DNA of 64,000 nt from a virus: positions 90,262 to 154,261 of IMG/VR virus record IMGVR_UViG_3300046665_000434. One strand, given 5' to 3'. Below the pieces are notes generated by a model. It was not told the DNA's origin. It worked only from the letters and a program-made list of their open reading frames with translations, and searched no databases. This document shows, in pieces, positions 163 through 10,877 of this stretch. A program made the position numbers and the translations under genes. Positions within the stretch are counted from its first letter, which is position 1. Every line of letters begins with the position of its first letter.

Positions 163-2856
163 TTATTCCGTAGTACGTTTGATATCGACTCGCATCGATG
201 CCAGCGTCTTATAGATATCGATCGGCTCACACTTGAGGATATACTCCTCGATCGTGTGTTGTGTCTTGTACTCGTTCTGAATGCCGTTCTGCTGATTGAG
301 ATTAGGAAACCATCCGTCTTCCGCTTCAGCTTTGATGGTGTACAAGAACACCGGCAGGCGCAGAACATCGTTCAACGTGAAGCTGTCTGGTGTTTCGATC
401 GTGATACGTTTTGTCTTCTGATCGTAGTGATACCGATCCAGACGCCATTTCTTTTCGATCGCAGACGAGATACCCAGCATGATGGCTTCATGCCGATCCG
501 ATGAACTATACAGCCATTCATTGGATTCAGTACCGTCCCACTCAACCAACTTACCTGAACGCAAGAAGCCAGGCATCAGCTCCTCTTGTTTATACATCGA
601 CCCGTGGTACAGGTAGTGCGGCAGCTCAAACCCTGAGGATTCTTTACTGTAGCTACGTTCCTGTCCCCAACCTTGGCCGCTGTGGCCGCTCTGGTCAAGC
701 GTATTGCCGATACCTAAGATGTCAGCCAGCAACTGACCAAGACCTTGCAGGAACGAGAACGTGAAGCCTTCTGACGAGTATTCGGATATGTCCACCGACT
801 CCAGAGACAGATACGCGCCCAATGGATCAGTGACCATTCGTTTCTCAAGCGCCAGCGTGTCGAGGTCGACGTTCTTCACCGACATGATCGCAGCTACCTG
901 AGCCTGACTCCACTCCAGGATCTCGTTACTACGAGTACTGATGTTAGGCTGACTGCCGGTATCGAGCAAGAACGAGAACACATCCACGTCCTCATCCTGA
1001 CCAAGGCGCGCAGCACGAGCGATGGTCTGGATCTTGATCGCTTCACGGAATGCCTGATTGAGCAGCAGGATACGGTTGGCTGCCGTCAGCGGAACCCCGG
1101 TCGACAGGGACTGGTAGGTCGCAATCAACGGATTGAGGTCTTCGTCCTTATAGAACTTAGCCACAATCTGAGGCAGGTCTTTGTTAGTAGCGCCAAAGAT
1201 ACGAGCAGGGGAATACCCGTCCTTGAAGACCTTCTCAGCAACAGCCTCGACGACCTCTACCCAGCTGGTGAAGATCAGCGTCTTCTTCTTGGCACCATCG
1301 ATGTATTTCTCAAAGTCGATGTACTGCACCATTTCGACGTGACACTTGGAACGCATGCCGCCAACAATCGAGCCGAGCGCCTCACCCATCACTTTGAGTG
1401 GTAGGTACTTCACGACACTCTTAGCCGATCTGAACTCAGCCTTCATTGCAGAAGGTAGAGACGGGATGATCTGCTTACGCTCGTACTGGTTGGCGAGCAT
1501 CGCCTCTTCTTTCATGGTCCGTGGATCGAATCCAGAGGACACGATCTTCACTGCCTTGTTGTACTCGACGAATTCTCTCCGTTGAGCATCATTGGTTAGT
1601 GTCTTCTCGAACCAGTCAAGACCTGCCTGATACTGGCGTTCGTAAGCCTTACGGTTGAGTTCGTAATAGTGCGTACGCTCATCGATGAATTTTCGCAACA
1701 CCGTACTGATGTTCTCAAGCGTGTACTTGTCGCCGTCCGGCATCTTGACGAGAACTTGCTCTTCGGTAACGTTGGTCTTGACCACGTCTTGTTTAGGGAC
1801 ATGGTACTTGAGGTGCCCCATCCGGTTACGCAGGATATCGTTGGCGCGCTTTGCATCACGGCCGTAGATCTTCCTGAAGCGTTCTTCCGTATCGTTGTCA
1901 AACAACGGGTCGATACACTTGAGGAATGGGATACACTCAACGCCCAGCGCCAAGATAGGCGTACCGGACGACCAGATGGAATAACTGACAGCCTTCATCT
2001 GGCACAGTTCGATCAGCAGTTGCGCACGGTCGGACTGGATACGGTTGAAGTTGTGGGACTCATCAAGAATAACAAACGTGTTGTTAAACTCACGGCTGTT
2101 GGCCTTGACGTAATCCAACATTTCCTCAAGCGACTCGTAATGGCAGATGTAGTAGTGCTTGTCCAACGTCAATGGTTGTCCGCTGGTGCTGTACCAGTAA
2201 GGACGGCGCTTGGTCAGAATACCATCGATGGTATCTTTCCAGACGGTCTCAGTTACTGGTTTAGGGCAGATCACGATCACCTTGTTAGGGTGAGTAGATT
2301 CCGCACACACCAACGTACCAACGGTCTTACCGCTACCAGCGCCTGCATCGAGCATGTAGCCCTTCAGCTGGAAGGCTGGGACCAGACGTCCAAAGATCTC
2401 GATGAACTCGCTCTGGAACGGTTTGAGAGGGAATGGAGCCAACCCGACAATAGAGTCAGGGTCAGTCGCCATCTTGAAACTCTTACCGTTAGGATTGCTG
2501 AGCTTACCGCCCTTCTGCTGAGACTGGATTTCAAGAGCTTGTCGATCAGCATCACCCAGCCAAGTGTTTTCCTTACACTCGTCAATGATCTTTTGCAGTA
2601 CACGTTTTGGCGTACGTGTTTGTCTGTCGTCGTAGATACGTTGACAGATATACAGGAAGTCAGGGCCGAAGAAGTGACGCATGCGGATCTCAGACGACCG
2701 CACCACCGAGAACATGTATTTGAAGAGGGTGTTGTTACCCCAAAGCCGATACATGTCACGACGTAGCAATTCGGTACTGATCCCTTCAATAATCAGAAAG
2801 GTTGGGGTGGATTCAACTTCGATCAACCCTAGGCGACGTTTCAATCCTGCAAACAT
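163..2856 (-). CDS. Virion SF2 (SNF2/DEAD-like) helicase with an extra C-terminal ART-like domain
   Basis: Walker A GAGSGKT, ILDESH, motif III SGTP, motif V STGV, motif VI QTIARAARLGQ; start placed at ATG 2856 (track starts at GTG 2868). Confidence 0.85.
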   Translation of the reverse strand: MFAGLKRRLGLIEVESTPTFLIIEGISTELLRRDMYRLWGNNTLFKYMFSVVRSSEIRMRHFFGPDFLYICQRIYDDRQTRTPKRVLQKIIDECKENTWLGDADRQALEIQSQQKGGKLSNPNGKSFKMATDPDSIVGLAPFPLKPFQSEFIEIFGRLVPAFQLKGYMLDAGAGSGKTVGTLVCAESTHPNKVIVICPKPVTETVWKDTIDGILTKRRPYWYSTSGQPLTLDKHYYICHYESLEEMLDYVKANSREFNNTFVILDESHNFNRIQSDRAQLLIELCQMKAVSYSIWSSGTPILALGVECIPFLKCIDPLFDNDTEERFRKIYGRDAKRANDILRNRMGHLKYHVPKQDVVKTNVTEEQVLVKMPDGDKYTLENISTVLRKFIDERTHYYELNRKAYERQYQAGLDWFEKTLTNDAQRREFVEYNKAVKIVSSGFDPRTMKEEAMLANQYERKQIIPSLPSAMKAEFRSAKSVVKYLPLKVMGEALGSIVGGMRSKCHVEMVQYIDFEKYIDGAKKKTLIFTSWVEVVEAVAEKVFKDGYSPARIFGATNKDLPQIVAKFYKDEDLNPLIATYQSLSTGVPLTAANRILLLNQAFREAIKIQTIARAARLGQDEDVDVFSFLLDTGSQPNISTRSNEILEWSQAQVAAIMSVKNVDLDTLALEKRMVTDPLGAYLSLESVDISEYSSEGFTFSFLQGLGQLLADILGIGNTLDQSGHSGQGWGQERSYSKESSGFELPHYLYHGSMYKQEELMPGFLRSGKLVEWDGTESNEWLYSSSDRHEAIMLGISSAIEKKWRLDRYHYDQKTKRITIETPDSFTLNDVLRLPVFLYTIKAEAEDGWFPNLNQQNGIQNEYKTQHTIEEYILKCEPIDIYKTLASMRVDIKRTTE

Positions 2857-4252: not shown

Positions 4253-4281
4253 GTCCCAAATAAGGAAGTAGTTTCATAAAA

Positions 4282-4596
4282 TTACGCTGCCGGAAAGCAG
4301 GTCTCTGGAATGTCTGGAAGATCGACAGTAATCCCAGCTTTGTCGTGCGTACAATCGGCACAATAGATGATGGTGTTGTTCGTCACGAAGCTGTGACAGA
4401 TTGAATTCAGCCAGTCTTTGGAGACCTTGACTGACGGCGTAAACGTGATCATTGAGGCATCCTGATTCCAGCCCCAGTTATAATCAGGACGGACATGGTA
4501 GACCCGTATCCAATGCAGTTCATCGCATGCGGGGCAATAGAAAGCTACTCCGTCACCGCGCTTTACCAACTTAGATCCTAACCGTTCCATAATCAC
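4282..4596 (-). CDS. Small Cys/His metal-binding protein (DUF6527-like)
   Basis: CPACxxxH, WGWN..TFTPSV, CHSFVT..I.YCADCTH pattern. Confidence 0.65.
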   Translation of the reverse strand: MIMERLGSKLVKRGDGVAFYCPACDELHWIRVYHVRPDYNWGWNQDASMITFTPSVKVSKDWLNSICHSFVTNNTIIYCADCTHDKAGITVDLPDIPETCFPAA

Positions 4597-4645
4597 ACCT
4601 CTCGTTAAAAGTTATTATATAGCCTAATCTTCTTGGACAGTCATC

Positions 4646-5443
4646 ATGCTAGCGGTCATTATTAAAGGCAATCCGAAGTTCATCAACACTCCGCTAGCTA
4701 AGTCGTACTATAGTGATATCGAGACGTTTCTAAAATCTCTCGGTTACACAGTTGAGTTTAATGCCGGTAAAGACTACACTCGTCCTAGACAGGATGCGGA
4801 TCTCTATATCGGACATTCTCGTGGTGCCGACCGTTATGACTTCATGGACGCTAAGAACAAAAGCAAGTTCTTGAAGTTCGGTGTCCTTGAAGGCTATATC
4901 CATCCGGTAGATGCCGCGTGGCAGAAAGTAACGAAGCCTGGAACCGGCGTTCCCCCAAACGAACACTTCATCTTCACTGATGAGCAGAAAGAAGCTATCC
5001 GAAGTAAAACGGCCGAGCTCTCTACGGAATCGAACTCAACTGTCGATACGTTGATTGCTAACGCCATGAAAGAAAAGTTCCTTGGCCCAGCCTCTCTTAA
5101 TAAACACATGGAGAATCTGGTTGTCATCGAGTCTAATGGTAAACCTGTAGGCTTCTATATACCGTTCCAAGAAAAGGACGGTGTCTGGCGTACGGGATCG
5201 ATTTACCTGCTACCTGAATATCGTGGACGTGGGATCGCTAAAGACGTGATCGCCAAGTTCGCGAAAGAGCGGAGAGTAAGGGCATGGATAGAGCGTGGAA
5301 ATACAGCCAGCGTTCGGGCCTTTACTGCGGCAGGGTTGGCGGGGACTGGACGACGCTTGCTGGTGAACGGTAAGCACTTTGATGAGTACGTTACTCTTGA
5401 AGAATCGTTAGAGCGCAATACGCGTATCCTGAGCTGGGACTAA
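4646..5443 (+). CDS. Two-domain protein: GHSRG hydrolase-like domain + GNAT acetyltransferase
   Basis: YIGHSRG; GNAT motif A IYLLPEYRGRGIAK and motif B NTASVRAF; STE linker and SLE..W tail. Confidence 0.7.
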   Translation: MLAVIIKGNPKFINTPLAKSYYSDIETFLKSLGYTVEFNAGKDYTRPRQDADLYIGHSRGADRYDFMDAKNKSKFLKFGVLEGYIHPVDAAWQKVTKPGTGVPPNEHFIFTDEQKEAIRSKTAELSTESNSTVDTLIANAMKEKFLGPASLNKHMENLVVIESNGKPVGFYIPFQEKDGVWRTGSIYLLPEYRGRGIAKDVIAKFAKERRVRAWIERGNTASVRAFTAAGLAGTGRRLLVNGKHFDEYVTLEESLERNTRILSWD

Positions 5444-5449
5444 TCATTA

Positions 5450-5734
5450 TATGCAAGCACCGGGTAGGGTGTAAGCAGACGGTGGCGGTTACGCCTGATC
5501 GAGTGACACACTCCTCGGTTAGGTAACCAGTGGTCAGGATGTCCTCTCTGACCTAAGACGTTATTGCTGTGGGTGCGATAACGTCTGCTGAAGCGAATGC
5601 TCAGCCTACAACGTTTGGTAGCGCGGGGACATGCCAAACGTTGTGGGGTGGACATACATACCCCAGTGTGACCACTACCGTACATCCCTCGATCCTTCCA
5701 CTCCTAGGGATCGAGGGATGTACCTTTCTTTATG
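5450..5734 (+). ncRNA. Putative structured non-coding RNA A
   Basis: No credible ORF; five hairpins inside a closing helix 5479-5485/5675-5681; TATG at 5450; 15-bp terminator stem 5681-5722. Confidence 0.6.
5681..5731 (+). terminator. Intrinsic terminator
   Basis: TACATCCCTCGATCC / GGATCGAGGGATGTA perfect stem followed by CCTTTCTTT. Confidence 0.75.
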
Positions 5735-5749
5735 CCGCATCCATACTTT

Positions 5750-5789
5750 TTCAATGAAATTATCTACAGTCATACATAACGGAGGTGAC
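5750..5789 (+). promoter_or_regulatory. Putative phage (early) promoter, copy 1
   Basis: 32/40 identical to 22341-22380; both lie at the head of + strand accessory gene clusters. Confidence 0.65.
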
Positions 5790-5802
5790 TAAACAAACCA
5801 AT

Positions 5803-5815
5803 GTCCGAGGAGGAC
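5803..5815 (+). promoter_or_regulatory. SD-containing hairpin (GTCC-GAGGA-GGAC variant)
   Basis: One of ten copies; compensatory stem variant. Confidence 0.7.
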
Positions 5816-5817
5816 TC

Positions 5818-6159
5818 ATGTCGTATTCTAATGCATTGAAAATCGGTGGTGTGCTGGTATTGGCTGCAATCGGTGTCGTAGCTGCTGTCAAAGCGTACCA
5901 CGAGAAAGAAGCCGCTTCTGAAGAGAAGCTAAAACCTCTCCAGACACTGGCCATGAAAGTAATGCTCAATAAACTCCTGGTGGAGATCAGCGAGCTGATC
6001 GTATCCAAACAGGTGATGCCGGATGACGATCTGTTTATCAGAGTCAGGGTGTTCAGGGATCTCGCCAAGGCCGACTATGTAGATCTCAGCCATCTTGACC
6101 TGTGTATGCTGGTTCAGGAAGCGCAGGGCATACTGTCCACACTCAAATCCATGCCTTAA
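5818..6159 (+). CDS. Small N-terminally membrane-anchored protein (paralog of 7203..7553)
   Basis: ATG 5818 right after the SD hairpin; hydrophobic N-terminus LKIGGVLVLAAIGVVAAVKAY. Confidence 0.75.
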   Translation: MSYSNALKIGGVLVLAAIGVVAAVKAYHEKEAASEEKLKPLQTLAMKVMLNKLLVEISELIVSKQVMPDDDLFIRVRVFRDLAKADYVDLSHLDLCMLVQEAQGILSTLKSMP

Positions 6160-6170
6160 TAGGAGGTTAC

Positions 6171-6626
6171 GTGAAGAATCCATTCAAACGTTACGCAACT
6201 ATATTCGATCGGTTGGCAGATAGTTTTCGAATCCGTACCTTTTCTCCTAAGGACGAGGTGAAGGACGTTGTAGAAATAGGCTTCGTTGAGGCATTAGGTA
6301 TATATCTTCACCACATCACGCGTGACCTTATTCGTCAAGGACATTCTGTAATGAGTGTCGTCGGTAAGGTCAAAGCCGCCAGAAGTGACGGTTGGGAAGA
6401 TGATATCGCCGCAATGATCAACGAGTATACCAGTCGCTCTACGGTCACGTATCAGCGCTATCCGGCCGGTGTCATGTCGATAGGTATCCCTCAACAAACT
6501 TATCGCTTGAAGCTGGTGCGTACGGTGAAGAAACCGGCTTCGGATTTCGCGGGAGATATGACCCGCGGAAAAGTAGAACTGTCGGAACAAGTGCTGACCA
6601 CTATCAAAAATTATTCGTCGGACTGA
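6171..6626 (+). CDS. Hypothetical protein
   Basis: AGGAGG at 6161 then in-frame GTG at 6171. Confidence 0.7.
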   Translation: MKNPFKRYATIFDRLADSFRIRTFSPKDEVKDVVEIGFVEALGIYLHHITRDLIRQGHSVMSVVGKVKAARSDGWEDDIAAMINEYTSRSTVTYQRYPAGVMSIGIPQQTYRLKLVRTVKKPASDFAGDMTRGKVELSEQVLTTIKNYSSD

Positions 6627-6636
6627 TCCGACTAAA

Positions 6637-6650
6637 GACCGTAGGAGGTC
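6637..6650 (+). promoter_or_regulatory. SD-containing hairpin GACC-GTAGGA-GGTC
   Basis: Repeat motif, 3 nt before ATG. Confidence 0.7.
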
Positions 6651-6653
6651 ATC

Positions 6654-7172
6654 ATGTTTCTTGTTTCTCGCAGTATCTTCAATCAACTCAAATCTGATTA
6701 TCTCGACCTCCCTCTCGGCGCCATCGATGAAGGTCTGCGTAACAGCATCCGTAAGATCAACATGATGAACGGTATAGTGACGTTCGCTTGCTGTGAAAGC
6801 CATTTGGAGACTGAGGAGTTTCCAGAATACGGTAGTCAATTCTACGTCGCCTTCCGGGCTAGCACTAACTACGGTATCCTTAAAATAAAGAGCATCTACA
6901 AAGGCTTTGCAGGACAGCTGGAGTTGATGGTCCCAAACCCTTATCTTGAGAATGAGTTATCGTGGACCAACCCGCGACTCGAGATCGATGAGACCTGTCA
7001 AGTTGATGGTACTGATCGACAATGGTCATTAGTGATCAGAGTAACCGTATTCAGCCATTCTTTCAAGGAAGTAGTCCTTAAAGCTTTCGAGAATGCTGTC
7101 AATAAAGAGCTGGTGCGGGACATCCCAAAAACAACTGCGGCTAAGCCGCGCCGATTCAGGCCGTCTTTCTAA
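6654..7172 (+). CDS. Hypothetical protein with TYW3-like N-terminal motif
   Basis: IDEGLRNSIRKIN...VTFACCESH resembles the ID..I..lv..IN....T.ssCsG motif. Confidence 0.6.
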   Translation: MFLVSRSIFNQLKSDYLDLPLGAIDEGLRNSIRKINMMNGIVTFACCESHLETEEFPEYGSQFYVAFRASTNYGILKIKSIYKGFAGQLELMVPNPYLENELSWTNPRLEIDETCQVDGTDRQWSLVIRVTVFSHSFKEVVLKAFENAVNKELVRDIPKTTAAKPRRFRPSF

Positions 7173-7186
7173 ATCTTACTGTCATC

Positions 7187-7199
7187 GACCGAGGAGGTC
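7187..7199 (+). promoter_or_regulatory. SD-containing hairpin GACC-GAGGA-GGTC
   Basis: Repeat motif, 3 nt before ATG. Confidence 0.7.
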
Positions 7200-7202
7200 A
7201 TT

Positions 7203-7553
7203 ATGTCGCTTTATAACGTATTGAAAGTTGGTGCTGTACTGGCAGTTGCTGGCGCTGCCGGCTACATTGGTTACAAAGCCATAGTGGCCTATAAAGAAGA
7301 ACAGGAGTATCAGGCAAAGCAAGAAGAAATCAACGACATTAAAACACAGTTAGTGTTAAAAATGATGTCCATCCGCCTGATCGTTTCTTTCAACGGTTCT
7401 GAATGGCTGGAGATTAAAGATCCTCAGGCTTACAGTTATTACGTAGATCTTGTCAACGCCCGCAGCACCGGTTACCGTGGATTCAGCCATGCTGACTTCA
7501 AGCTCCTCTTGTACAAGCTGGAATACGTGTACGCAGTAGTTACTGCACGGTAA
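7203..7553 (+). CDS. Small N-terminally membrane-anchored protein (paralog of 5818..6159)
   Basis: MSLYNVLKVGAVLAVAGAAGYIGYKAI followed by a charged helix. Confidence 0.8.
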   Translation: MSLYNVLKVGAVLAVAGAAGYIGYKAIVAYKEEQEYQAKQEEINDIKTQLVLKMMSIRLIVSFNGSEWLEIKDPQAYSYYVDLVNARSTGYRGFSHADFKLLLYKLEYVYAVVTAR

Positions 7554-7555
7554 TA

Positions 7556-7597
7556 TACAGGAGAGGCGTAAGCCTCTCCTGTACTCTTCTTTTTTTT
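7556..7597 (+). terminator. Intrinsic terminator
   Basis: TACAGGAGAGGC-GTAA-GCCTCTCCTGTA plus T tract. Confidence 0.85.
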
Positions 7598-7627
7598 GTT
7601 GTAATAGCTTACATTTGGTTTCAATAC

Positions 7628-7933
7628 TATGTAGAAGTACCCGTGGCTAATAGCCATTACAGTACAGCCATGCTCTTTAACAACTCGGTGTCAGTCACAG
7701 TAAGTGCTATCTCAGTACAGCTCCCTGATAATGACTCTCTAGCATAGCGGGTATCCAGCCCTGCATCTTAGCGCCTTTCTGGAACGATAAGCGCGCTCCA
7801 TTCGATCATGTACGAAATATCAAGTCGTTGAGCAGTAAGGGCGCTGCGCTCTGGCGATACACGACAAGGGTTGAGTCGGGTCTTTGGAAGAAACAAAGAA
7901 GTCATACGGCCCGGCCTTGCGCCGGGCTTTATG
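7628..7933 (+). ncRNA. Putative structured non-coding RNA B
   Basis: Lies between two terminators; TATG at 7628; nested long-range helices 7638-43/7748-53, 7756-62/7867-73, 7770-78/7837-45. Confidence 0.45.
7903..7933 (+). terminator. CATA..TATG-flanked hairpin terminator
   Basis: GCCCGGC-CTTGC-GCCGGGC-TTTATG. Confidence 0.65.
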
Positions 7934-7991
7934 CTGTATGTAAGTATTTATAATGACGAAGTACTTATGAACATCAGTGTAGACTTCCGCC

Positions 7992-8780
7992 ATGACAAAG
8001 ATCAACTACCCTATCCTTGGAGCAGAATCCATGAACCCAGACATCGATCGTCCTACACGGCCAACTTTAGCTGAAGCTATCGCAGCGATCACAAAGCCAG
8101 CGCCGTATTGGCCACAAGACCTCATCGTCAAAGTGGTATCGCTACCGTCGAAGATGGCCGCAGACGAGCAGTTGCGTGATGCGTTTATCAACGTAATCGA
8201 AAACTTGGCAACCAATATCAGTTCGTTCAGTACTGAGCGTGTATTGCGGCCAGCTAGTGTCGGCGATGATGTCCTTGAATTCTCCAATAACTTTAATGGC
8301 ATCACTGTCCACGCGCCGGAATACGAGAACAAACCCGTCCTGCGCATGTTGCGCCAGATCCAGAATCAGTACATGGTAGGTCGTAGTCTGTCCCAACTGG
8401 CAAGGGACCCTTTCGCACTGATTGCGTTCGAGCCGAACAAGACTCGTACCGACGTGATCGATGCCTGGTTCATTCCGTCGTTTTTCATCAGCACCCTGCC
8501 TGCACATATTTGCAGTAAGAGTATCAGATCCGCGGCCGATACCGTCATCGGCGGTGAAATTTATTCGTTCGATCTGTCCGGTGAAACCCTCCAGAGTGAT
8601 CTGATCAGCGATGTCGCGTCGAAGATGTACAAGTCTATGATGCTCACTCCGGAAGGTGAACAGACCAACTCTGAGTTCTCATGGCCAGGTGCGTTGAAAC
8701 AGCTGCTGCCTAACGGTAGTACTGATGTACTGAGTAACCGTATGCAAGGTTATTCGGAAGTCATCAAACAGGCAGAATAA
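7992..8780 (+). CDS. Hypothetical protein
   Basis: 262-aa ORF followed by a terminator; possible start at the downstream ATG after GGAG. Confidence 0.75.
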   Translation: MTKINYPILGAESMNPDIDRPTRPTLAEAIAAITKPAPYWPQDLIVKVVSLPSKMAADEQLRDAFINVIENLATNISSFSTERVLRPASVGDDVLEFSNNFNGITVHAPEYENKPVLRMLRQIQNQYMVGRSLSQLARDPFALIAFEPNKTRTDVIDAWFIPSFFISTLPAHICSKSIRSAADTVIGGEIYSFDLSGETLQSDLISDVASKMYKSMMLTPEGEQTNSEFSWPGALKQLLPNGSTDVLSNRMQGYSEVIKQAE

Positions 8781-8790
8781 CCTGATCCCT

Positions 8791-8821
8791 GCATAGGTCC
8801 GGCTACTGCCGGACTTTATGC
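8791..8821 (+). terminator. CATA..TATG-flanked hairpin terminator
   Basis: GCATAGGTCCGGC-TACT-GCCGGACTTTATGC. Confidence 0.7.
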
Positions 8822-8877
8822 CGTGTCATTTCTCACCAAACCGACTTATCTAATAGACAACTAATCGAGCATCTGAA

Positions 8878-9867
8878 ATGACTACATTTATCGTAATGAC
8901 TTATGAACGTTCTTATCATGCCCATCACCGTCACGCCAGCAGTGGCTTTATCGCGTTTGCTGTAGCTAGCGCCGATATATTGGACTATAAACGAACCATA
9001 GTCGATAGCCCTAGCCCTCACCTTACGAAACCTGACCATTTTATCGAGATGGAGTTAGGGTTTCCGCATGCGGTAAGACCATTTTTGAGTGAGCTGGTCG
9101 ACTCGTTCTTTCATCACAAAGACAGTGAACTATGGAAAATGTCGCAGTTCTTGGTGGTTGCTCAGTACGACCCGCAGAAAGACAAGATCGTCAATAAGCA
9201 AATTATCCCGCTGCGCGATATCAAGAAAGCATTTCTGCCGGAGCAACCGATTGACGATAAGTTTTCCAAAGTGGGGTTGGAGTTCCGTAACAACTTGAAC
9301 GAGGAAGATATCTCTATCGTAAAAGAGGTGGCGTTGAACCTCGACCTGAACGAACGGCTGCTCACAAAAGCCAGACGCTGGAATGCTGGAGATAACAAAC
9401 GCCTCGGCCAATTTCAGCTGGTGAAGAACCACTGCAAAATGATCGGTATTCGTCAAGCTCCATTCTCGGTCCACTCTTTAGATACCGATATCCATATTGA
9501 TCGGTTCAATTCGAAGAACATCGAATTGATGGAGACGTTCTTCAATAAACACGTCACTTCGATCGAATACGGTATCGGTGATTTGAGAAGCGCGAAACTC
9601 TTTTACGCCGGCCCTCTTACGGCAGAGATGGTCACTGGCATGGTGGAGTTGTTTAAACGTTCTGAATTCGACATCCTCTATTATCAAACCAATACCCTCG
9701 GTAATGAGGTCGTCGAAGCTGAGGTTCTGAATCTTAGTTCCGGTAGTTTTGGGATCCATGAACAGGCTGGGATGCCAGAGCGTGGCTTTGTTGATTTCCA
9801 CGCCCTCAGACATCCAAAAGGCGAAGGTGCGCTGCGATTCGCCGAACAACTCCACAACCAGCTGTAA
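8878..9867 (+). CDS. Hypothetical protein
   Basis: 329-aa ORF, no recognised motif. Confidence 0.7.
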   Translation: MTTFIVMTYERSYHAHHRHASSGFIAFAVASADILDYKRTIVDSPSPHLTKPDHFIEMELGFPHAVRPFLSELVDSFFHHKDSELWKMSQFLVVAQYDPQKDKIVNKQIIPLRDIKKAFLPEQPIDDKFSKVGLEFRNNLNEEDISIVKEVALNLDLNERLLTKARRWNAGDNKRLGQFQLVKNHCKMIGIRQAPFSVHSLDTDIHIDRFNSKNIELMETFFNKHVTSIEYGIGDLRSAKLFYAGPLTAEMVTGMVELFKRSEFDILYYQTNTLGNEVVEAEVLNLSSGSFGIHEQAGMPERGFVDFHALRHPKGEGALRFAEQLHNQL

Positions 9868-9890
9868 ATAATTACATGATGTCACCGTGA

Positions 9891-10288
9891 TATGTAAAAG
9901 GTCTATCACGGATCAGTTACCTCCTTTGGGGAGCGGTGTTGTAATTCCCCGTCTGGCCGACAACCGCTCTCACTTTTTATTCCTTGGGATCGTATTACGG
10001 TTCCTCAAGAACCCCGCCGCGTAGCGTATTTGCCCGCGCGCGGCTAGGTACTGCACCGCCTCACCCTATAGGTTGCAGTTACAGCCAGCGAAGGCTGGTG
10101 GACCTCGTATAGCGCTGTCGAATGCTGTTAGTTAATGGGGTGGTCTCTCACACTGAGCCGCCAGTTGTCGGTAGGCCGGGTTAAGGCTTGGTCGCCCAGT
10201 TCACCTTGACCTGATCTTGGTGTTCTACCTGAATCTATCGACAAGTCCTGCCTCTCCTGCCTCCTTAGGGAGGTGGGGGAGTTTTATG
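9891..10288 (+). ncRNA. Putative structured non-coding RNA C
   Basis: ~400 nt without a credible ORF; at least seven hairpins; end-to-end helix GATCAG 9911-16/CTGATC 10211-16; TATG at 9891; terminator 10252-10285. Confidence 0.6.
10252..10288 (+). terminator. Intrinsic terminator
   Basis: CTCTCCTGCCTCC-TTAG-GGAGGTGGGGGAG-TTTT. Confidence 0.7.
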
Positions 10289-10352
10289 CTGTTAGGGATA
10301 TGGTATGCAGTGGTAGCCTCCATTGTACCGCAACACTTTAAAGGACTGTCAC

Positions 10353-10877
10353 ATGAAACTCAATATCGCTCTGTCTGCTGTAGCGAACGTGCTGGGTGCT
10401 ATCAACGCTGCCAACACCGCTGTTAGCCTGGCCCTCACCGAAGCCCAGGTTACTTTCGCTGCACCAGCGGTAACTGCCGGCACTGCTGGCCGTAACACCT
10501 CCATTACCTTGACCGGCGTCAATGGCCAGGGCGTCGAAGGTTCTCGTACATTCTCCTACACCCGCCAATCCCTGGCTGCTGGTGCCGTGGCTTCGACTGC
10601 TCCGGCAAGCGTTACCACAGCGCCTGGCGATACCGAAGCAGCTTCGCTGACCAAGGTCGCTACTGCTCTGGGTCTGCTGGCTGGTGAGTTCACTTCGAGT
10701 GCGTTTACCGCTCCTGCGGACATGACCACTCCGGGCACCATCACTCTGACCGCCAACGCGGCCAGTCTGGTGTACACCGGGGCTCGTACGGTGGCTTTGA
10801 ATTTTCCTGACTCCGACGTAGACTTCGCCACCCTGGCGCCGACTACTGACCTGGACGGTTTCGATGCTGAAGCCTAA
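10353..10877 (+). CDS. Virion structural protein, member of the repeated-module family (probably high copy)
   Basis: AAGGA SD; Ala/Thr-rich; module LGAINAAN..VTFAAP..NTSITLT..G...FSYTR..L and DLDGF tail; codon usage like the capsid gene. Confidence 0.8.
   Translation: MKLNIALSAVANVLGAINAANTAVSLALTEAQVTFAAPAVTAGTAGRNTSITLTGVNGQGVEGSRTFSYTRQSLAAGAVASTAPASVTTAPGDTEAASLTKVATALGLLAGEFTSSAFTAPADMTTPGTITLTANAASLVYTGARTVALNFPDSDVDFATLAPTTDLDGFDAEA

Follow-up and report, generated by a model that had tools for sequence, protein, structure and literature searches.

We analysed a 64-kb window of DNA, the last 64 kb of a 154-kb contig held as IMG/VR virus record IMGVR_UViG_3300046665_000434 (estimated completeness 62%, 51% G+C, approximately 90% coding), in which three ORF-poor gaps lie between the gene for a GNAT acetyltransferase-domain protein and a gene of the DUF7941 family (ORF, open reading frame). 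The initial annotation had read these gaps as a cluster of uncharacterised, independently transcribed non-coding RNAs (ncRNAs), each with an AT-rich lead-in carrying TATG, a body of nested helices with G-U pairs, and a private terminator ending in TTTATG. We refer to the three predicted RNAs, in map order, as RNA A, RNA B and RNA C (Table 1); positions are those of the window unless given as contig positions. Our favoured explanation, to which we assign a probability of about 75%, is that they are three RNA transcription units in the conserved backbone of one phage clade, with RNA A an ncRNA of a new family, RNA B a conserved ncRNA, and RNA C an RNA of leader type.

Table 1. Predicted features of the three RNA units and their flanks.
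Feature	Position	Strand	Remark
265-aa protein gene	4646-5443	+	N-terminal phrog_30942 domain and C-terminal GNAT acetyltransferase domain (PHROG, Pfam)
ATTATATG, putative nvRNAP (TATG-type) start motif	5446-5453	+	Predicted +1 at G5453; 3 nt past the GNAT stop codon (5441-5443)
RNA A, predicted transcript	5453-5729	+	About 275 nt; start G5453, end at the 18-bp terminator
RNA A body	5479-5681	+	Closing helix P1 (5479-5492 with 5668-5681) enclosing six hairpins; minimum-free-energy and centroid folds agree
Kissing loop, 5' partner GUCCUC	5541-5546	+	Hairpin 2 loop; pairs with 5625-5630
Kissing loop, 3' partner GGGGAC	5625-5630	+	Hairpin 5 loop; pairs with 5541-5546
RNA A terminator	5680-5737	+	18-bp hairpin, CTTTC, then TTTATGCCG
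AT-rich box and TACAGTCATACATA, promoter-like motif of the 5818-7553 operon	5745-5778	+	After the RNA A terminator
T-run intrinsic terminator closing the 5818-7553 operon	7556-7600	+	Just upstream of RNA B; same arrangement in relatives
RNA B middle-type promoter, TGTAA-N4-TTAC-N15-TATGTA	7600-7633	+	Exact motif match
RNA B, predicted transcript	7631-7933	+	About 300 nt; conserved core 7670-7799, 3' half variable
RNA B terminator, CATA-hairpin-TTTATGCTG	7903-7936	+	
RNA C middle-type promoter	9863-9896	+	Overlaps the stop codon of gene 8878-9867
RNA C, predicted transcript	9894-10288	+	About 390 nt; ~10181-10250 alone common to G001 and G014
RNA C terminator, 13-bp CCUCC/GGAGG hairpin and TTTTATGCTG	10252-10291	+	
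DUF7941 virion-module gene	10353-10877	+	Pfam PF25613; conserved downstream neighbour of RNA C

The gaps are indeed poor in coding sequence. Across 5444-5784, 7554-7991 and 9868-10322 no ORF of at least 30 amino acids (aa) has a positive codon-usage score and all flanking genes score positive; no residual coding signal was present in any of the six frames, and six-frame translations of the gaps matched nothing in the rest of the contig. Every small ORF in the gaps scores negative and was rejected, including an 81-aa antisense ORF across RNA A whose ATG sits within the terminator stem, and decayed genes or relics of paralogues were discarded because no frame holds a coding signature and no paralogous relic was found. 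The absence of a tRNA or tmRNA signature was likewise borne out: ARAGORN found zero tRNA or tmRNA in the window, and Rfam 15, whose families include tRNA, tmRNA, group I intron, riboswitches, ROOL/GOLLD, 6S, Y RNA and Rsm/Csr sponges, gave no match at gathering score across the whole window and none at E ≤ 10 in 5300-10450. Apart from their promoter and terminator motifs the three RNAs share no sequence similarity, as had been noted.

Several functional readings could be dismissed at this level. An antisense role was rejected because the gap RNAs have no complementary target beyond 12 nt within the contig. CsrA/RsmA sponge RNAs expose many GGA motifs in hairpin loops; the RNA A stretch has 5 GGA in 285 nt, against ~4.5 expected, with no Rfam Rsm/Csr match, and its loop GGA motifs are part of the covarying kissing loop described below and vary among relatives. 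Type III toxin-antitoxin RNAs of the ToxI kind are tandem-repeat RNAs upstream of a toxin gene with a terminator between; tandem and direct repeats are absent from RNA A, which is located downstream of the GNAT gene. An antiterminator reading was dropped, as it rested on a 7-nt match with ~0.14 expected by chance.

The window's virion helicase is ~40% identical to the helicases of cultured phiKZ-like jumbo phages (LucasX, Noxifer, Goslar). Scanning IMG/VR with the helicase alignment returned 79 loci, 15 of which form one clade at 55-62% identity to the window's helicase; 13 of the 15 records are longer than 10 kb and make up the set used for the RNA A counts. This clade is one of uncultured phiKZ-like (Chimalliviridae-type) jumbo phages, and individual members are given below as G001, G004 and so on. 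BLAST of the region against near and distant phages and plasmids gave zero matches, single-protein locus scans of IMG/VR and JGI metagenomes recovered no relatives, a homologous-protein search for the 329-aa neighbour protein matched only itself, and comparable gaps were not found in Psa21 and 201phi2-1 when synteny was followed around the phrog_30942 homologue. In window 163-860 (- strand) the helicase has an additional C-terminal domain of ~150 aa, phrog_13483, which is not covered by the tblastn alignments to most relatives, spanning residues 1-676 only.

Folding z-scores, computed against dinucleotide shuffles, separate the three units. RNA A lies far below its shuffles (z -8.4 for the whole unit; -7.2 on the + strand and -4.5 on the - strand for the body without terminator) and is the strongest folding outlier among the contig's scored ORF-poor gaps. 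RNA C is marginal (z -3.1 with its terminator, -1.95 without), and RNA B folds like its shuffles (z -0.45 for the whole unit, +0.46 for the body); local 110-nt windows give the same order, A, then C, then B. A nested-helix body as described in the initial annotation is therefore found in A, and not beyond chance in C or B. Internal G-U pairs favour the + strand in A (7 vs 1, with 20 kcal/mol in favour of that strand) and in C (11 vs 3), but not in B (4 vs 7). A further structured gap, at contig 84964-85248, was rejected as an RNA unit, being a missed protein gene.

To follow RNA A through the clade we used a single-sequence covariance model of its body (R1) and a second model rebuilt from the R1 matches (R2). 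R1 matched six of the 15 clade records full-length, and R2 all 13 records longer than 10 kb, with exactly one full-length copy in each (E 1e-9 to 1e-51). Among 76 other phiKZ-like records, made up of 64 more distant ones from IMG/VR and 12 cultured phages, R2 gave no RNA A match, and the cultured phages lacking an R2 homologue include 201phi2-1, PhiPA3 and PA1C; R1 had no match in 12 cultured phiKZ-like genomes. In the alignment of 14 sequences (11 distinct rows) fitted to the covariance model, 88.7% of cells are standard pairs, compared with 35-43% when the partners are slid; both sides have changed in a compensatory way in 54 of the 67 pairs, G-U intermediates included. Support is good for the closing helix and for hairpins 1, 2, 3 and 5, and weak for hairpin 6 (64%).

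The loops of hairpins 2 and 5 can form a 6-bp kissing interaction that lies outside the covariance model. Across the alignment 98.4% of its cells are paired and 4 of its 6 pairs are compensatory, with relatives carrying GUCCUC/GAGGAC, GCUCUC/GAGAGC, GUUCCC/GGGAAC, AUUCCC/GGGAGU or AUCCUC/GAGGAU, and one lineage CCCCGG/CCGGGG, displaced by a few columns. Since the model leaves both loops unpaired, this contact is an independent test of the fold, and because the loop complementarity covaries we read RNA A as a closed junction of several helices that a kissing loop locks. As a stand-alone structured ncRNA it would define a new family. Its body of 205 nt has one long-range helix enclosing a junction of six hairpins, with the fold locked by the contact between loops 2 and 5.

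The signals flanking RNA A are conserved too. Most relatives have (T)ATTATATG or a TATG variant at 20-35 nt upstream of the body, amid differing flanks, and after the RNA an equivalent hairpin with TTTATGCYG, succeeded by a CAGTCAyACAT motif. RNA A has only this TATG-type motif and no middle-promoter box, and its lead-in is the end of a coding region and not AT-rich, so that the AT-rich lead-in ascribed to all three gaps does not apply to it. Judged by these motifs, RNA A is probably transcribed independently. The gene upstream is also constant: of 12 regions from relatives searched by tblastn, 10 have a GNAT-domain gene whose end lies 30-90 nt upstream of RNA A, and NCBIfam, PDB sequence and Pfam searches assigned the window's GNAT domain to generic GNAT families only. 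One sub-clade (G013, G008, G015) has a different layout, in which no terminator comes immediately after RNA A, conserved sequence free of ORFs continues for more than 100 nt, and a DUF7941 gene lies ~0.5-1 kb downstream; GNAT was not found there in the short upstream stretch searched.

Evidence for RNA B comes from its conserved 5' core. In G001 and G014 the unit consists of a T-run terminator, the promoter box GTAATTAATTAC, 16 nt, TATGTAGAAAC, ~300 ORF-free nt and the same terminator. G004, G009, G010 and G011 have the blocks GCUCUUUnACAA and CAGCUCCCU in the same order, and G007, G006 and G005 have partial sets. Four different stem sequences preserve hairpin Ha, a 5-bp stem between GUAAG and AGCUCCC, and two more hairpins persist in relatives with differing sequences; at least seven relatives retain the blocks and the three hairpins. 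When pairs were counted by a custom script in a model-guided alignment of six relatives, window sequence excluded, 89% of core cells were paired, compared with 30-44% when slid, and 14 of 20 pairs were compensatory. The 3' half does not align among relatives, and BLAST of RNA B against the clade matched the terminator motif alone. The 5' core would thus consist of three covarying hairpins and of single-stranded blocks that are conserved (AGCUCUUUnACAA, ACAGUAAG, CAGCUCCCUG), leaving the 3' half free to vary, and it is this composition of short hairpins and single-stranded blocks, not a want of conservation, that accounts for the ordinary folding energy. RNA B would then be a second conserved ncRNA of ~300 nt, expressed from a phiKZ middle-type promoter identical to that of the tRNA operon. 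Together, covariation among homologues supports A (14 genomes) and the core of B (six relatives), and through this conservation the original observation gains more support than single-sequence folding provides. G009 and G011 carry two ORF-free units in tandem, an RNA B orthologue and a ~280-nt unit with a TGTAAGAAGTTAC box, followed by the DUF7941 orthologue.

RNA C is the least conserved of the three. BLAST against the clade gave no match, and similarity is not detectable outside G001 and G014, where a ~215-nt unit with the same promoter type (GTAATTAyTTAC-N15-TATGTG) and terminator stands directly before the orthologue of gene 10353; local alignment to G001 shows that this unit and window 10181-10250 have ~70 nt in common. 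Orthologues of the DUF7941 gene, at 40-70% identity, are present in 11 relatives, and an ORF-free unit precedes the gene in G001, G014, G009/G011 and G010. RNA C also holds two CCUCCUU heptamers, against 0.02 expected from contig + strand frequencies. Its poor conservation and weak structure make a leader-type RNA with a standard terminator at its end the most likely reading; a leader or spacer role is as likely as that of a trans-acting RNA. In such an arrangement, RNA C would be transcribed from the same promoter as RNA B and end ahead of the DUF7941 virion gene. Support for the proposed cluster of independently transcribed RNAs is thus good for A, fair for B and weak for C, where the promoter, the terminator and the 70-nt block speak for it.

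The TATG start and the hairpin-then-TTTATG end described for each gap were both recovered, and both have a wider distribution. A TATG with its G as +1 is required, but is not enough, for a phiKZ-type late promoter. TATG is 2.5-fold depleted in the contig, with 33% of its occurrences intergenic, and many intergenic sites across the whole contig take the form CATA-hairpin-TATG. TTTATGCYG occurs five times in the window against 0.62 expected, once after a protein gene at 8815. Because half of the contig's TTTATG sites directly follow a GC hairpin, we regard the hairpin-TTTATG ends as the phage's standard terminator-plus-TATG punctuation, a contig-wide terminator and putative late-promoter element, and the notion of private terminators fails. 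The RNA B terminator (CATA-CGGCCCGGC...GCCGGGC-TTTATGC) is a clade-wide repeated element, recurring at many sites with 85-96% identity in G001, G014, G010, G005 and others.

In phiKZ, late promoters have a TATG core with G as +1, and middle promoters such as P78M and P62M have AAanTTACc centred near -24, some of them with TATG at +1 (PMC4666361). The late-promoter reading of the TATG motifs therefore needs extending for RNA B and RNA C, which combine a TTAC-like box with TATG at the predicted start, as the phiKZ middle type does, the box TGTAA-N4-TTAC standing 15 nt before TATG. The exact 15-base motif TGTAA-N4-TTAC-N15-TATGTA occurs three times in 154 kb, before RNA B, RNA C and the tRNA operon (0.03 expected in the window), the third copy lying ~90 nt upstream of the first tRNA in the phage's tRNA cluster. 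In all three, TTAC falls at -22 to -19 if G is +1, similar to phiKZ middle promoters; unlike the phiKZ box, that of the putative promoter here is longer and has its own consensus, TGTAA...TTAC followed by TATGTA. A looser version precedes a small membrane-protein gene, so the middle-type signal is not exclusive to RNA genes. The tRNA cluster (contig ~66.4-71.2 kb) comprises six standard tRNAs and two Rfam tRNA matches of 86 and 122 nt, which must contain insertions.

One candidate for a fourth RNA unit, contig 73024-73270, was rejected since it encodes a 52-aa hydrophobic protein, MSIGLLLLIIL...GGLPTWGYSRGFGYGPSG... (contig ~73066-73227), which we take, from reading its sequence, to resemble DUF3309-type small membrane proteins. 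This unit has a TTAC-N15-TATGTA promoter and a hairpin-TTTATGCCG terminator and was missed by the codon-score gene caller. A separate motif, an AT-rich stretch with TACAGTCATACAT(A/T), has six copies in the contig (5765 and 22356 in the window), each 35-45 nt before a strong ribosome-binding site; it is conserved as CAGTCAyACAT in relatives and is probably the clade's early- or middle-class promoter.

The intervening protein genes behave differently from the RNAs. No relative's region contains a homologue of genes 5818-7553 or 8878-9867, and homologues of gene 8031 lie elsewhere in G009, G010 and G011; because the gene after RNA B differs between genomes, RNA B is not tied to one downstream gene. 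Since the RNAs are conserved while the protein genes turn over, we assign the RNAs to the conserved backbone of this part of the genome and regard the protein genes as variable, lineage-specific insertions. The accessory operon is bracketed by genes for 113- and 116-aa proteins (5818-6159 and 7203-7553) with similar N-terminal membrane anchors (MSYSNALKIGGVLVLAA... and MSLYNVLKVGAVLAVAG..., respectively); they look like paralogues, and no homologue of either was found in relatives' regions.

A number of these results weigh against reading the gaps as three RNA units. The alignments of RNA A and RNA B were fitted to modelled structures, which inflates the paired fractions, a bias that the slid controls and the unmodelled kissing loop offset only in part. 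Single-sequence folding of RNA B is no better than that of shuffles; two relatives are partly misaligned in its six-sequence alignment, the pair count comes from a custom script, and RNAalifold on a plain MAFFT alignment, which is not structure-aware, predicted no pairs. The RNA C body has a marginal z-score, and its three sequences give no covariation support. No terminator separates RNA A from the GNAT stop codon, 3-10 nt before its start, and RNA A is therefore at least also the 3' untranslated region (UTR) of the GNAT mRNA. On a rival account the RNAs would be cis-acting UTRs throughout, not genes, with A a structured 3' UTR serving stability or 3' end formation, and B and C attenuated 5' leaders of genes 8031 and 10353. 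Besides the missing terminator, the conserved GNAT-RNA A adjacency fits such an account, as do the layout of B and C (promoter, 300-400 nt, terminator, same-strand gene), the constant position of RNA C before the DUF7941 gene, and the precedent of 17 5'UTR-derived candidates in phiKZ and 8 in 201phi2-1 that arise by premature termination (PMC10914365, PMC11512511). We nevertheless judge it unlikely, as RNA A retains its own conserved TATG-type start motif and persists in three genomes without an adjacent GNAT match, and its seven-helix junction with a covarying kissing loop far exceeds what 3' end protection needs. Moreover, the gene after RNA B varies among genomes, and the TATG that follows every terminator could restart transcription for the next gene.

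A more limited doubt, with a somewhat better though still minority chance of being right, concerns RNA C and the variable 3' half of RNA B, which could be non-functional spacer or decayed sequence, with selection acting on promoter and terminator only. The weak folding of the C body (most local windows near 0), the lack of a BLAST-level homologue in 13 relatives save one 70-nt block in the two closest, and the failure of the B 3' half to align all point this way; the gaps show no coding signature and no paralogous relic, however, a 390-nt spacer is unusual in a ~90% coding genome, an ORF-free unit recurs before DUF7941 in several relatives, and the CCUCCUU heptamers exceed expectation. Those heptamers also invite an interpretation as translational regulators, in which C/U-rich anti-Shine-Dalgarno sequences would mask phage or host ribosome-binding sites in an RNAIII-like manner. 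Anti-Shine-Dalgarno 5-mers are enriched relative to shuffles in A (7 vs 2.2, P 0.023) and C (14 vs 5.5, P 0.0085), ACCUCCUU of RNA C is unpaired in the centroid fold, and the loop of the RNA A terminator is ACUCCU. Yet the best-exposed motif of A, GUCCUC, is explained by the kissing loop and changes with its partner (GCUCUC, GUUCCC, CCCCGG), RNA B has zero such 5-mers, one of the two CCUCCUU copies in RNA C is buried in the terminator stem, and the contig offers no complementary target of more than 12 nt, making this role improbable. RNA A might, finally, be an inverted-repeat cluster acting as DNA, for instance a replication origin, packaging site or protein-binding array, given that the - strand too folds better than chance (z -4.5), that several stems are long and nearly perfect, and that the site lies ~800 nt from the divergent-transcription point at 4253-4645. 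We consider this hardly credible: G-U pairs and folding energy favour the + strand, compensatory changes pass through G-U intermediates, a covarying loop-loop contact would be meaningless in duplex DNA, and promoter-like and terminator signals in + orientation flank RNA A in relatives.

If RNA A is the independent RNA that we favour, its most likely role, stated with low certainty, may be that of a compact RNA that binds protein in trans, as scaffold, cofactor or decoy, and the adjacent GNAT acetyltransferase might, with similarly low certainty, be its first candidate partner. That the two form a functional pair, with the RNA as the enzyme's cofactor or guide, regulator, or substrate mimic, is a speculative proposal that we think has little chance of being correct; in the substrate-mimic version, RNA A may, for example, be a decoy for an RNA- or aminoacyl-tRNA-directed acetyltransferase. 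G008, G013 and G015 carry RNA A without a detectable adjacent GNAT, and the adjacency may reflect a mere conserved gene block. If true, the pair would be a phage ribonucleoprotein acetylation system without a described counterpart in bacteriophages.

RNAs of this kind have precedents in the same virus group. ONT-cappable-seq and grad-seq identified 5'UTR-derived, 3'UTR-derived and intergenic small RNAs (sRNAs) in phiKZ and 201phi2-1; phiKZ has 17 5'UTR-derived ncRNA candidates as well as 3'UTR-derived species, and 201phi2-1 has 11 sRNAs, one of which (sRNA005 / sRNAgp182) is conserved by position across genera (PMC10914365, PMC11512511). Like these, the units here are short, ORF-free and set between a phage promoter and a conserved terminator motif, and by sequence layout B and C would match the '5'UTR-derived ncRNA' class. 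The reported RNAs are defined by transcript ends and RNA A by structure and covariation; they are mostly shorter than 250 nt, whereas B and C, at 300-390 nt, exceed the 250-nt filter (PMC11512511); and the portions of the two reports available to us describe no covariation-supported multi-helix fold or pseudoknot (PMC10914365, PMC11512511). Because small RNAs of phiKZ and 201phi2-1 have been reported, the kind of RNA is already known, and the absence of an Rfam match does not make it new; what is new here is the specific RNA A family: its fold is supported, it has a tertiary contact, its clade range is defined, and GNAT is its constant neighbour. ROOL (RF03087) and GOLLD (RF01998) are likewise structured, pseudoknotted phage RNAs, often near tRNA genes, but measure 500-800 nt compared with ~205 nt for RNA A, which has no Rfam match and resembles them in neither sequence nor architecture. 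The T4 stable RNAs C and D (species 1 and 2) are located within a tRNA cluster and derive from its precursor by processing. RNA B and RNA C recall them in having the promoter of the tRNA operon, as phage stable RNAs expressed with tRNA genes, but are separate units ~25 kb from the tRNA cluster.

Small RNAs of nucleus-forming jumbo phages are thus already known, and few have any structural support. The evidence for RNA A is sufficient for an Rfam-style family, for probing or cryo-EM constructs, and for GNAT-binding tests, and the exact tRNA-operon promoter on RNA B and RNA C suggests that these phages have a 'stable RNA' class of expression.

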